From: Candidatus Tayloriibacteriota bacterium
Lineage (GTDB): Bacteria > Patescibacteriota > Minisyncoccia > Phycocordibacterales > SIBU01
Reading direction: 5' to 3'
Assembly (NCBI GenBank): GCA_016188455.1
Contig: JACPHR010000021.1
Location: forward strand, 1-56,733
Length of the DNA: 56,733 nt
Part shown: positions 40,423 to 56,733 of the stretch, one piece after another
How positions within the stretch are numbered: position 1 is the stretch's first letter
Layout of the letters: each line of letters opens with the position of its first letter
Notes under the pieces: model-generated
Seen by the model: only the letters and a program-made list of their open reading frames with translations
Told to the model about the DNA's origin: nothing
Database searches by the model: none
Made by a program: the position numbers and the translations under genes

Positions 40423-40507
40423 GGAAGGGTCGGATAATGGTATTCCACCGGTCTTGAAAACCGGCGCCGGCAACGGCTTGCGAGTTCGAGTCTCGCCCCT
40501 TCCGCCA
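40423..40507 (+). tRNA. tRNA-Ser (anticodon TGA), long variable arm, CCA encoded
   Basis: Hand fold: GGAAGGG TC GGAT AATGGTA TTCC A CCGGT CTTGAAA ACCGG (variable arm CGCCGGCAACGGCTT) GCGAG TTCGAGT CTCGC CCCTTCC G CCA. Confidence 0.85.
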
Positions 40508-40657
40508 TGAACCGAGAGGACTGCTAAACGCAGTCCGAGCGGCTCATCATTAGCGTGATAGAGGCGAGACTCGAACGGCAGAGCAAAATTTTCAGCAGAA
40601 AATTTTGGGAGCCGGTGCCCAGACCAATTTTTGCGGCGGCAAAAATTTAGTCGCGGG

Positions 40658-40679
40658 CGAGTCTCGCCCCTTCCGCCAT
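40658..40679 (+). repeat. 22-nt direct repeat of the tRNA-Ser 3' end (att-like)
   Basis: CGAGTCTCGCCCCTTCCGCCAT is identical to 40487-40508. The intervening 150 nt contains an inverted T-arm copy (GGCGAGACTCGAAC, about 40563-40576). Confidence 0.8.
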
Positions 40680-40723
40680 TAAATATTTAGTATCGTATAG
40701 ACCCGAGTGCTATAATTAAAAAT

Positions 40724-46661: not shown

Positions 46662-46733
46662 GCCCTCATAGTTTAATGGATAGAATGCAAGATTGCGGAT
46701 CTTGCGATCGAGGTTCGATTCCTCGTGGGGGCA
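46662..46733 (+). tRNA. tRNA-Arg (anticodon GCG), CCA not encoded
   Basis: Hand fold: GCCCTCA TA GTTT AATGGATA GAAT G CAAGA TTGCGGA TCTTG CGAT CGAGG TTCGATT CCTCG TGGGGGC A. Confidence 0.8.
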
Positions 46734-46865
46734 CCCGACCAGAAAATGTCAAGTTCTCTCGGCATTTTCTGTGTCGCTGGAGGACCCCGAGGAATCGAAG
46801 GACGGAGCGAGCGAAGGCGAGCGAGTCGGGGTCGCGGGCGAGTACAGCAGTGCGAGACCCGTGAC

Positions 46866-46885
46866 CGATTCCTCGTGGGGGCACC
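46866..46885 (+). repeat. 20-nt direct repeat of the tRNA-Arg(GCG) 3' end
   Basis: CGATTCCTCGTGGGGGCACC is identical to 46716-46735. The 130-nt insert contains an inverted T-arm copy (CCCCGAGGAATCGAAGG, about 46786-46802). Confidence 0.8.
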
Positions 46886-54474: not shown

Positions 54475-54959
54475 CGATTGAGTATTCGGGCCAAGGCAAT
54501 GCCCGCGGCAACTGAAACGTTGAAGGACTCTTTCAAACCGCGGGTGACAATTTCGGCCACCGCGTCGCATTGCTTCAGGACGGCGCGGGGAATACCCAGA
54601 ACCTCATTGCCAAAAATAAATGCCGCCGGATAACGAGGTTTAATTTTTCTGTAATCTCCGGCGTTTGCCGTCTGTTCAAGAGCGACGATAAACGTCTGGC
54701 GACTCTTGAGAAACCGGAGGGCTTGCGAGATTCGCGGAAAGTGTTTCCAGGCGACGGTTCGCTCGGCGCCCAAGGCGGTTTTAGCGAAATCCTTGCGCCA
54801 CCGGCCAAAACGGTCCACAGGCAAAGGGCTGAGACCCGTGAGCAGTATGGCCGATACGTCAAGGCAATCCGCGGTGCGGAAAATCGAGCCGACGTTATAG
54901 ACGCTGCGCAGGTTATGGAGCACTATGAATACTTCTTTGTTTCTCGGGGTTAATTTCAT
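54471..54959 (-). CDS. SpoU/TrmH-family RNA 2'-O-methyltransferase
   Basis: VLHNLRSVYNVGSIFRTADC.., FIFGNEVLGI.. and ..IVTRGLKESFNVSVAAGIAL are SPOUT motifs 1-3. Confidence 0.85.
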   Translation of the reverse strand: MKLTPRNKEVFIVLHNLRSVYNVGSIFRTADCLDVSAILLTGLSPLPVDRFGRWRKDFAKTALGAERTVAWKHFPRISQALRFLKSRQTFIVALEQTANAGDYRKIKPRYPAAFIFGNEVLGIPRAVLKQCDAVAEIVTRGLKESFNVSVAAGIALARILNR

Positions 54960-54998
54960 GCTAAACCATACTATGATATAATCGGCTGTAAGAAAAGC

Positions 54999-55406
54999 AT
55001 GTTAAGCGTTTTCCCCAGCTTGTTTTCATACGCCCTGGTCGTGCCGCTCGCTTTCAGACTGATCGTCGGGCTGACTTTTCTTTGGTTTGGCTTTTCCAAA
55101 CTGACCGGCGAGCGGCGAAAGAACAAAACGGCAATGTTTGAAACCGTCGGCCTGAAGCCGGGAAACTGGTACCTGTGGGCAGTCGCTGTTTTGGAAATCC
55201 TCGGCGGCCTCGCGCTCGTCATCGGCTTTCTGACGCAGGCGGCCACTTTGGTTTTGTCCGCCATCGCTTTGGGAGCCATCGGCATCAAACGCCGACAGCC
55301 CGCTAAAATTTCCAGCAGTCTCGGTTTTCTGTGTCTGCTTTTCGTCATCACGCTCTCGCTTTTGTTTTTAGGCCCGGGTTTTTACGCCTTTGATTTGCCG
55401 CTCTAG
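54999..55406 (+). CDS. DoxX-family membrane protein
   Basis: Four TM helices. R...G..F...G..K and LEILGGLALVIGFLT are DoxX-like. Confidence 0.75.
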   Translation: MLSVFPSLFSYALVVPLAFRLIVGLTFLWFGFSKLTGERRKNKTAMFETVGLKPGNWYLWAVAVLEILGGLALVIGFLTQAATLVLSAIALGAIGIKRRQPAKISSSLGFLCLLFVITLSLLFLGPGFYAFDLPL

Positions 55407-55536
55407 AGACTTGAATAAAGCGGCTTTTTCCAGTATCGTGTTCCAATCGCGCCCATAGCTCCCGCCTTCGTCCCGCACAATGCGGGACTATGGACGGGCA
55501 AGCAGTTTGACCTCGCTATGGGCTTCATAAGAATAC

Positions 55537-55609
55537 GCGCCCATAGCTCAGTTGGTAGAGCACCTGCCTTTTAAGCAGAGGGTCGCAGGTTCGATTCCTG
55601 CTGGGCGCA
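55537..55609 (+). tRNA. tRNA-Lys (anticodon TTT), CCA not encoded
   Basis: Hand fold: GCGCCCA TA GCTC AGTTGGTA GAGC A CCTGC CTTTTAA GCAGA GGGTC GCAGG TTCGATT CCTGC TGGGCGC A. Confidence 0.85.
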
Positions 55610-55660
55610 CACGCCAGAAAAATCTTCACTGCTGAAGATTTTTCTGGACGTGCGCGGGAC
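55605..55660 (+). repeat. 56-nt tRNA trailer hairpin, copy 1 (after tRNA-Lys)
   Basis: GCGCACACGCCAGAAAAATCTTCACTGCTGAAGATTTTTCTGGACGTGCGCGGGAC has one mismatch to 56142-56197. It starts inside the acceptor 3' strand. Confidence 0.85.
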
Positions 55661-56072
55661 AGAGGCATGTTCGGTCAGCGGGCCGAACAGCCGAGTCCGG
55701 GTCGGGAAATTTTACTCGTGACGACGAGTAAAATATTCCTGACCACAAGACGAAAGATCTAAACTGCTTTAGATTTTTCGATAACGGTGTGAGCCGGAGC
55801 AGTGTTCGGCGTTTCGCCGAACCGCGAGGCGGAGTCGCGAGTTCCGAGACCGACGGGGCGAGGAAACTTGTGACCACAAGTGAACCTAATAAAATTGACA
55901 ATTAGTGATTCTGTTCCAACCGTGGAATATTACAGTAAAAATTATTATTTATGCCAAAATTAACTAATCAAGAAATTAAGGAGAATGGGTATTACTGGAC
56001 AATTAGCAATATGACCCCCCACCAGAAAATATGCTTATAACAATCTCTTGTTCGGCGCACCATTAAAAATAC

Positions 56073-56146
56073 GCGCGTTTAGCTCAGTTGGTCAGAGCAC
56101 CTCGTTTACACCGAGGGGGTCGGGAGTTCAAATCTCTCAGCGCGCA
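56073..56146 (+). tRNA. tRNA-Val (anticodon TAC), CCA not encoded
   Basis: Hand fold: GCGCGTT TA GCTC AGTTGGTCA GAGC A CCTCG TTTACAC CGAGG GGGTC GGGAG TTCAAAT CTCTC AGCGCGC A. Confidence 0.85.
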
Positions 56147-56197
56147 CACGCCAGAAAAATCTTCACTGCTGAAGATTTTTCTGGACGTGCACGGGAC
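56142..56197 (+). repeat. 56-nt tRNA trailer hairpin, copy 2 (after tRNA-Val)
   Basis: GCGCACACGCCAGAAAAATCTTCACTGCTGAAGATTTTTCTGGACGTGCACGGGAC. Confidence 0.85.
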
Positions 56198-56253
56198 GAG
56201 TCGGGTGAGAAGCTTCGTGGCCACTGAATTAATATTAATCCAAAAAATAAATT

Positions 56254-56550
56254 ATGCTCCGCCAAATTGAATGTATCATATCGGGCCGAGTCCACGGCGT
56301 GCTCTATCGGGATTTCGCCCGCCGCAAAGCTCGCGGCCTCGGCCTTGTCGGCATGGTGGAAAATCTGCCAGACGGCACGGTGCACGTGGTCGCCCAAGGG
56401 GACGAGTCCGAACTCAATCGTTTTATCGCGGACTTGGAGCGAGGCAGTATCTTTTCCCGCGTTGATAAGGTTATAGTAAAGTGGTCCAACGCCGAACAGG
56501 CTTTTTCCGACTTCACTATTCGTTATAATAACCTTTCCGACCGATTTTGA
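56254..56550 (+). CDS. acyP: acylphosphatase
   Basis: ISGRVHGVLYRDFARRKARGLGLVGMVENLPDGTVHVVAQG is the V.G.VQGV.FR...........G.V.N..DG.V signature. Confidence 0.85.
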   Translation: MLRQIECIISGRVHGVLYRDFARRKARGLGLVGMVENLPDGTVHVVAQGDESELNRFIADLERGSIFSRVDKVIVKWSNAEQAFSDFTIRYNNLSDRF

Positions 56551-56599
56551 TAGGCAAACATGCGAATATACGAATTTATAACAATTTATAACAAGGTAA

Positions 56600-56733
56600 T
56601 TAGACGGAAACGTAACCAAAATAGACGCTGATAAAGAGTTTGAATAAGTTGTCGTTTCGATGATTGAATCGGTACTCCACCTCTTTAAGATACATCGGGA
56701 AATGATATTTGGAAACCCCGCGATAATTGTAAA
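56600..56733 (-). mobile_element. 3' end of an IS1595-family (ISXO2-like) transposase gene, running off the window
   Basis: The minus-strand translation from the window edge is YNYRGVSKYHFPMYLKEVEYRFNHRNDNLFKLFISVYFGYVSV*. The ..GVS.K.L..YL.E.EFR.N.RN.. motif is the conserved C-terminus I recall for IS1595 transposases. Confidence 0.5.

Follow-up and report, generated by a model that had tools for sequence, protein, structure and literature searches.

In a stretch of 56,733 nucleotides (nt) of DNA from a Candidatus Tayloriibacteriota bacterium (contig JACPHR010000021.1, positions 1 to 56,733; hereafter the window), a tRNA-Lys(UUU) gene and a tRNA-Val(UAC) gene run into the same trailer hairpin. 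We found that this trailer is the beginning of a conserved unit of about 135 nt with three hairpins and that it is a module of a structured element that has not been catalogued and that base complementarity ties to tRNA ends. Most likely, with a probability that we put at roughly 55%, the element is derived from insertion, is possibly addressed by base pairing, and has a first hairpin that also acts as a terminator. The full-text literature searched contained no description of it, and no Rfam family matches it. The genome under study (G000; 893 kb, 98% complete) was compared with 60 relatives from the same order of Patescibacteria (G001 and so on), 61 genomes in total. The tRNA genes were called with ARAGORN and Rfam RF00005, and the element family was defined by a covariance model, R1, built from 12 units. 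A loose pattern (GGAG..CGAGBCNGGGTCGCG) gave mostly chance matches in GC-rich genomes, and only R1-confirmed matches were kept. Loci with an upstream tRNA, matches in arrays, element-bearing tRNAs, and CCA status were tallied by hand.

The original prediction had described a 56-nt trailer common to the two tRNAs, both of which end in ...GCGC-A-CACG and, as it had stated, lack an encoded CCA. This 56-mer begins at acceptor position 69 and lies at 55605-55660 behind tRNA-Lys and at 56142-56197 behind tRNA-Val, with a single G/A difference; its 34-nt palindromic core (CCAGAAAAATCTTCACTGCTGAAGATTTTTCTGG) is identical at 55614-55647 and 56151-56184 and was matched in 0 of 100 shuffles. The genome holds four copies of the core, behind Lys(UUU), Val(UAC), and Lys(CUU) and in unit 2 of the Lys(CUU) array, and none outside tRNA arrays, so that the sequence is not one that occurs mostly away from tRNAs. 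The tRNAs directly 5' of three of the copies (Lys UUU, Val UAC, Lys CUU) all end in GCGCAC. As an entity of its own, however, the 56-mer did not stand: the similarity runs past 56 nt, and the 56-mer is the first third of the longer unit. In a self-comparison of the genome, positions 55528-55912 proved homologous to the stretch downstream of tRNA-Lys(CUU) on contig C20, with both trailers internally repeated; the two Lys loci are paralogous over about 280 nt.

The unit consists, in this order, of a first hairpin (H1), a short complement of the target end, a second and a third hairpin (H2 and H3), the motif GUGAC, and a repeat of the target's last bases. H1 is followed by the junction GNGCGNGNC-RGAG; H2 has a GGA/GA internal loop, with CGAGNCNGGG as a further junction; and H3, which starts with GUCGCG and ends with GUGAC, is followed by a short tail. 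This consensus (three hairpins with the conserved junctions GGAG ... CGAGNCNGGGUCGCG ... GUGAC) is matched by both tandem units behind tRNA-Lys (units 1 and 2; Table 1). Between units the hairpin sequences vary with compensatory changes and the junctions are unchanged. Unit 1 and its counterpart, unit 1 of the tRNA-Lys(CUU) array on contig C20, are 98% identical; unit 2 shares 70% identity with unit 1 and 82% with the unit that abuts tRNA-Lys(CUU) in G004. By nhmmer and R1, Lys(UUU) carries two units in tandem, Lys(CUU) three, and Arg(UCG) one. R1 has 18 matches in G000, of which 15 lie in arrays behind tRNAs and 1 in an insert ahead of tRNA-Ser(CGA); the remaining 2 are outside tRNA arrays, one at the end of a protein gene and the other probably at another such end. 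Elements were found on about 20 of the 45 tRNAs, and for 16 tRNAs the element is followed by an 11- to 22-nt stretch that repeats the 3' end of the tRNA. No open reading frame (ORF) with a family match was found in 55611-56072, and Rfam 15 detected, over 54800-56733, the two tRNAs only, with otherwise sub-threshold, chance-level matches at E <= 1 and no ribozyme.

The complement is what ties the unit to its tRNA. In unit 1, CGTGCGC (55649-55655) pairs with GCGCACG of the tRNA-Lys end. Abutting units have an 8-nt perfect complement, at a fixed position after H1, to the last five tRNA bases and the first three trailer bases, and six complement types co-vary with the tRNA end: CGCAC/GTGCG (many), CGGAC/GTCCG, GGCAC/GTGCC, CGCAT/ATGCG, TCCAC/GTGGA, and TGGACCAC/GTGGTCCA. 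Since the complement changes with the tRNA end across genomes, acceptor pairing is a conserved, covarying feature. In fuller variants (tRNA-Lys in G003, G006, and G027; Arg, Asp, Trp, Cys, and Ala in G000), the complement is 13 to 21 nt long and spans the whole acceptor 3' strand plus the T-arm, and the core is followed by 15 to 22 nt that repeat the tRNA end; some of these variants have H1 placed between two halves of the complement. The tail of the unit likewise tracks the tRNA end, being CAC after GCAC, GAC after GGAC (four of four), and CAT after GCAT, and in some loci a longer repeat reaches into the trailer (CACAGTAGA in L030, CACAAAA in L066). In the Lys/Val copies the target repeat is only CAC (3 nt) and the complement 6 to 7 nt.

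We then determined whether the fold is maintained in the 49 R1 matches from other genomes. Stem cells were paired in 91.3% of cases, compared to 65% in shuffles and 34 to 48% in slid controls; the alignment was fitted to the model, which favors structure, yet the margin is large. Compensatory changes were seen in 30 of 31 stem pairs. The stems contained 93 G·U and 21 A·C pairs, and one G·U pair in H3 was near-invariant (41 of 47). Because G·U outnumbers A·C, the fold belongs to the tRNA-sense strand, either as RNA or as single-stranded DNA. In addition, three bases after the H1-side complement pair with three bases after GUGAC to form a closing helix, P0, in the combinations GUG/CAC, UCG/CGA, UUG/CAA, AUG/CAU, and GUC/GAC (88% paired, 67% in shuffles). 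Because P0 pairs, H2 and H3 hang from a three-way junction. The sequence of P0 is copied from the target and does not belong to the element itself. Three other structural candidates were discarded by eye: kissing of the loops of H1 (CUGC) and H2 (GCAG), which relatives do not conserve, a K-turn reading of the GGA/GA internal loop, and a hammerhead-like core.

In the Lys/Val copies the trailer hairpin comprises a perfect 15-bp core plus CACG/CGUG and can be extended via GCGC/GCGC into acceptor positions 69-72, and the original prediction had it invading the acceptor stem. In the minimum-energy fold (-59.1 kcal/mol) the cloverleaf is intact and the hairpin starts from nucleotide 74, and forced invasion gives -54.6 kcal/mol. 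The pairing proposed there is conserved and compensatory across genomes, but invasion is disfavored by 4.5 kcal/mol in these copies. The tRNA-Lys with its two units folds well beyond shuffles (z = -11), again with an intact cloverleaf. A role in termination had been suggested as well. In 31 of the 34 abutting copies H1 has the order A-run, stem, loop, stem, U-run (the U-run being of 4 or more), with the loop CUGC in 25 of these 34 and in 56 of 89 copies overall, and is thus terminator-like; a terminator scan of 55200-56400, however, found none, and H1 of the window copies, with UUUUU after a stem with 2 G-C pairs, fails the G-C criterion of the tool.

The family is widespread. R1 matches were present in 53 of the 61 genomes; they total more than 500, and a single genome has as many as 39. 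About 52 of the 69 loci that we fetched have a same-strand tRNA directly upstream, with many isoacceptors represented, and the units in the fetched loci are always in the orientation of the tRNA. R1-confirmed copies also occur in metagenome-assembled genomes (MAGs) labelled Saccharibacteria, Taylorbacteria, or "Patescibacteria group," in three Elusimicrobia MAGs, and in one IMG/VR contig. The Elusimicrobia copies (L163, L165, L230) and that of the IMG/VR contig (L085) have cores scoring 33 to 53 bits and no tRNA nearby; the latter contig has two tandem copies with T-loop-like flanks. At another locus (L074; G040 contig C7, about 172,900), a unit abuts a tRNA with a Lys-like 3' end to which ARAGORN assigned the anticodon UUA ("Stop"); this tRNA could be a suppressor or a tRNA-Lys that has mutated.

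Sister genomes of the genus differ at the same tRNAs, which have between zero and three units or a different variant. At Lys(UUU), G000, G001, and G002 have abutting units, whereas the variant is the full one in G003 and G006. At Lys(CUU), three units were found in both G000 and G004, the full variant is present in G006, and G003 has no unit. For Val(UAC), the unit is complete in G005 and G003 and a miniature in G000; in both G000 and G005 this tRNA lies ahead of an acylphosphatase gene. The module comprising H1 and the junction that follows it (J12) is 92 to 98% identical among four G000 copies and only 63 to 77% identical to units at the same tRNA in genomes whose tRNA-Lys is 97% identical. 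From this pattern of identity, the 56-mer common to Lys and Val reflects recent copying or conversion within G000 among tRNAs ending in GCGCAC. Unit 2 and the unit that abuts the tRNA in G002 share only 69% identity, so that an order in which the older unit was pushed downstream is inferred rather than demonstrated. No RNA run was listed as containing this region. Its layout is covered in pieces by contigs from four DNA runs of a single groundwater study; two joints in them (55656>55825 and 55743>56145) were rejected as alleles, as they resemble the paralogous array on contig C20.

Under the insertion reading, units would arrive where the internal complement matches, and the matched bases would be duplicated. 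Repeated insertion at one tRNA end would build arrays in which the newest unit stands next to the tRNA, and H1 would probably also stop or pause transcription of the tRNA gene. The enzyme that mobilizes the units is probably not encoded by the element. Among the options offered in the original prediction, a mobile hairpin associated with tRNA ends comes closest to this reading. In a stronger and more doubtful version, the three-way-junction core would be the working part of a re-addressable insertion system; alternatively, the core would be a new self-cleaving or nuclease-guiding RNA that makes tRNA 3' ends in bacteria without RNase Z and RNase E. In the re-addressable form the site would be chosen by 5- to 21-nt pairing and exactly the paired stretch duplicated by a host or trans-acting enzyme, and the core would be closed by a helix of the internal complement and the target copy.

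Several observations weigh against insertion. Copies other than those of Lys and Val are 65 to 82% alike within a genome, about as close as they are to copies in other families; such likeness is unlike a recent burst and would fit elements held in place by selection. No allele of the tRNA-Lys locus without unit 1 was seen. The candidate enzymes do not track the element (53 of 61 genomes): the Y1 transposase (PF01797) was found in 39 of 61 genomes and is absent from the element-rich G003, G004, G011, G034, and G049, reverse transcriptase was found in 24 of 61, and there are element-rich genomes without both. In G000, the IS110-type DEDD recombinase PF01548 was not found, and there is a single tyrosine recombinase (PF00589, contig C15). 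An exact complement of at least 6 nt to the last 12 nt is present behind 6 of the 45 G000 tRNAs, the same 13% as among foreign pairings, and within G000 alone the 3-nt repeat and the 6- to 7-nt complement of the Lys/Val copies could be chance. As this genome-wide test was not enriched, the case for pairing rests on position-specific covariation in relatives. Finally, the strand specificity of the folds and the near invariance of the junction bases are as compatible with a working RNA as with a mobile element.

This last point leads to an account in which the unit is a host cis-acting RNA module for tRNA 3' ends: H1 terminates, the three-way-junction core, with conserved purines at its junctions, is cut by an endonuclease such as RNase III or RNase P or cleaves itself, and the repeats of the tRNA end serve to build the closing helix and are not insertion scars. 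We consider it unlikely as the explanation, though it is the main rival, and it and the insertion reading are not mutually exclusive. In its favor, the processing by RNase Z that the original prediction had put forward finds no enzyme, as TIGR02651 scored over its curated cut-off in 0 of 61 genomes (23-bit partial matches only in G000) and RNase E/G was not found in G000, where RNase III and a 530-amino-acid (aa) ORF for the CCA-adding enzyme are present and 29 of the 45 tRNAs do not encode CCA. The strand-specific fold with its conserved G·U pair and junctions, the covariation of P0, the constant orientation of the units, the folds kept despite divergence to 65 to 80% identity, and CAC|A at both unit borders are likewise what a host module would show. 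On the other hand, the 8 genomes without an R1 match are equally without RNase Z, fewer than half of the G000 tRNAs carry the element, and the number and variant of units at the same tRNA change within one genus; copies are found at the ends of protein genes too and, in Elusimicrobia, have no tRNA, the Val copy is derived by deletion, and no ribozyme or other Rfam family matches. Nor is the element limited to tRNAs lacking CCA, as had been proposed for checking: about 7 of the 20 element-bearing tRNAs encode CCA, compared to about 9 of the 25 without the element, so that carriage is unrelated to encoded CCA.

It is very improbable, and by now largely refuted, that the trailer is an ordinary intrinsic terminator or a palindrome of the REP (repetitive extragenic palindromic) type, duplicated behind similar tRNAs and unrelated to tRNA ends. 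The A-run and U-run around a short H1 stem and the paralogy of the two Lys loci would agree with this, but the conserved unit reaches about 100 nt past H1 with two more covarying hairpins, the CUGC loop is needless for a terminator, the complement and tail track the tRNA end, no terminator was detected in the window copies, Y1/RAYT (REP-associated tyrosine transposase) genes do not track the element, and every copy of the 34-mer is in a tRNA array. We give equally little credence to a decayed attL/attR scar of phages or islands that were integrated by tyrosine integrases and later deleted. The repeat in related copies does run from the T-loop to the tRNA 3' end, which, in the sublocation classes that Williams is said to have set out in 2002, is reportedly the identity block typical of elements with the T-loop as their integration sublocation. 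Against a scar, one conserved fold of about 135 nt lies behind more than 15 tRNA species, each with its own repeat and antisense copy; no integrase gene adjoins the units and G000 has one tyrosine recombinase, the Lys/Val repeat is only 3 nt, and compensatory stem changes are not expected of scars. Among 72 candidate viral contigs there was no integrase island with the module at attP, and one contig had two ORF-less copies.

The insertion-derived element that we favor shares features with several known systems. Like the single-strand transposons of the IS200/IS605 type and their miniature or trans-mobilized relatives, such as palindrome-associated transposable elements (PATEs) and REP sequences and bacterial interspersed mosaic elements (BIMEs) with RAYT, it is small, hairpin-based, and strand-specific; in these systems, too, a few bases beside the foot of the hairpin pair with the flanking DNA where insertion takes place, insertion is 3' of a short specific sequence, and tandem intergenic mosaics are formed. 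It differs from them in not being tracked by Y1 transposase genes, in lacking a GTAG-type REP head, in a complement that can be 13 to 21 nt long with a target duplicated over 3 to 22 nt, and in that conservation lies in a three-hairpin core, whose junctions are invariant, and not in the palindrome. T-loop-sublocation integrative elements of tRNA and transfer-messenger RNA genes and the integrase-less elements derived from them, the cis-mobilizable elements (CIMEs), are similarly located at the tRNA 3' end, restore the gene end, accrete in tandem, and, as in the relatives within our family, displace a direct repeat running from the T-loop to the 3' end. They are kilobases long, whereas the unit measures about 135 nt, has no integrase, uses one fold for many tRNAs, and carries in each copy an internal antisense copy of the target, with a repeat of 3 nt in Lys/Val. 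With intrinsic terminators that have an A-tract it has in common an H1 directly after the gene and, in most abutting copies, the A-run, short stem, and U-run; the conserved CUGC loop, the stem reaching into the acceptor strand, and the two further conserved hairpins set it apart. The IS110/IS1111 bridge (seek) RNAs are also folded non-coding RNAs of about 150 nt with stretches complementary to the insertion target, but the element has one target complement and a target duplication instead of two bispecific internal loops, no DEDD recombinase gene was found in G000, and there is no sign of RNA action in trans. A miniature inverted-repeat transposable element (MITE) was rejected, as the two ends of the unit (ACGCCAG... 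and ...CTGACCAC) do not form inverted repeats and the repeat length (3 to 22 nt) is not fixed.

The 5' side of tRNA-Lys also bears the duplication that had been predicted. The first 13 nt of the gene (GCGCCCATAGCTC) occur exactly twice in the window (expectation, about 0.02 matches; none of 100 shuffles had two), and the inverted copy (GCTATGGGC) and the hairpin (GTCCCGCACAATGCGGGAC) reported between the two copies are both there. The 75-nt insert has no other copy in G000 and no R1 match. In G001, the orthologous locus has a 12-nt copy, a shorter hairpin, GCTATGGGC, a spacer, and the tRNA, and in G002 a common promoter-like block leads straight into the tRNA without duplication (alignment A3). 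Given this G002 site, the 5' duplication is an insertion polymorphism, found in two of three orthologous loci. It would be an insertion separate from the 3' elements that shares their layout of copy, hairpin, antisense copy, and gene. An 18-nt 5' copy, a hairpin with the CUGC loop, and a weak R1 match are found in the insert that precedes tRNA-Ser(CGA).

Copies of 5' ends were also seen at two other G000 tRNAs, tRNA-Ser(GCU) (C8:13118-13520, L282) and tRNA-Asn (C26:28013-28400, L283), where 16 and 13 nt, respectively, are repeated 305 to 315 nt upstream and the inserts hold an 84- to 88-aa GIY-YIG nuclease ORF (PF01541, E about 1e-15). These represent a further type of insertion by which the end of a tRNA is rebuilt. 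The Lys 5' insert and the ends of these inserts are not significantly alike (shuffle p = 0.08 to 0.7). The sequence TTGACC-16-AAGAAT in the Lys insert was rejected as a tRNA-Lys promoter, since it ends 2 nt before the tRNA, too near to serve. A/T-rich -10-like boxes (TAAGAAT, TAAAAAT, TAAATAA) end 2 to 3 nt before position 1 of several tRNAs (window 55525-55536 and 56061-56072; C20:43840-43851), and leaders from them would be very short or absent.

Table 1. Features of the tRNA-Lys/tRNA-Val region of the window
Feature	Position	Strand	Evidence and details
Orphan copy of tRNA-Lys positions 1-13	55449..55461	+	Exact 13-mer GCGCCCATAGCTC; second copy 55537-55549
Insert between 5' copies, 75 nt	55462..55536	+	Hairpin 55470-55488; antisense GCTATGGGC 55515-55523; fold z = -5.9
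tRNA-Lys(UUU)	55537..55610	+	ARAGORN 55537-55609/10; Rfam RF00005 75.7 bits
tRNA-Lys(UUU) acceptor 3' strand	55602-55608	+	Discriminator A 55609; CCA not encoded
Unit 1	55611..55746	+	R1 E = 6e-39; fold
Unit 1, H1 core	55614-55647		
Unit 1, complement	55649-55655		CGTGCGC
Unit 1, H2	55658-55697		
Unit 1, H3	55701-55743		
Unit 1, tail	55744-55746		CAC
Unit 2	55747..55877	+	R1 E = 8e-32; tail CAC 55875-55877; other hairpin sequences, same junctions
tRNA-Val(UAC)	56073..56147	+	ARAGORN 56073-56146/7; Rfam 69 bits; discriminator A 56146; CCA not encoded
tRNA-Val miniature unit, 77 nt	56148..56224	+	R1 E = 9e-10, truncated match; H1 56151-56184 and complement intact; upper H2 deleted at GGGAC|GAGTC; H3 vestigial; tail CAC 56222-56224

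Elsewhere in the window, fuller variants of the family were noted behind tRNA-Ser(UGA) (40423-40700) and tRNA-Arg(GCG) (46662-46885), where the element is followed by an exact copy of the tRNA's own 3' end of 22 and 20 nt, respectively. On contig C20 (22300-22560, L003), a full unit lies just past the stop codon of a protein gene and is followed by a diverged copy, of about 42 nt, of the gene end, which contains an exact 15-mer (AAACTCGCGAAGTAA), and then by a fragment resembling a tRNA 3' end. The gene of the CCA-adding enzyme is about 150 nt upstream of the tRNA-Arg(UCG) with its abutting unit (C22:23420-24185). The sole match to RNase P RNA in G000 is weak (RF00010, 42.7 bits against a gathering score of 100) and unusually long (485 nt; C3:4199-4683).

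The Lys/Val locus shows the minimal form of the element, with a 5- to 8-nt complement and a 3-nt repeat, and a recently copied lineage at three tRNAs with the same 3' end. The displaced copies of tRNA ends and the tandem hairpins break assemblies at such loci and can be mistaken for island scars or pseudo-tRNAs. If the core did prove re-addressable, it would be a protein-less, programmable mobile element of an undescribed kind. If the reading of the family is true, a large group of ultra-small bacteria carries hundreds of copies of an undescribed folded element, each with an "address" matching a tRNA end, which raises the questions of how a site may be found and duplicated by base pairing without a gene and how Patescibacteria make their tRNA 3' ends without a recognizable RNase Z.

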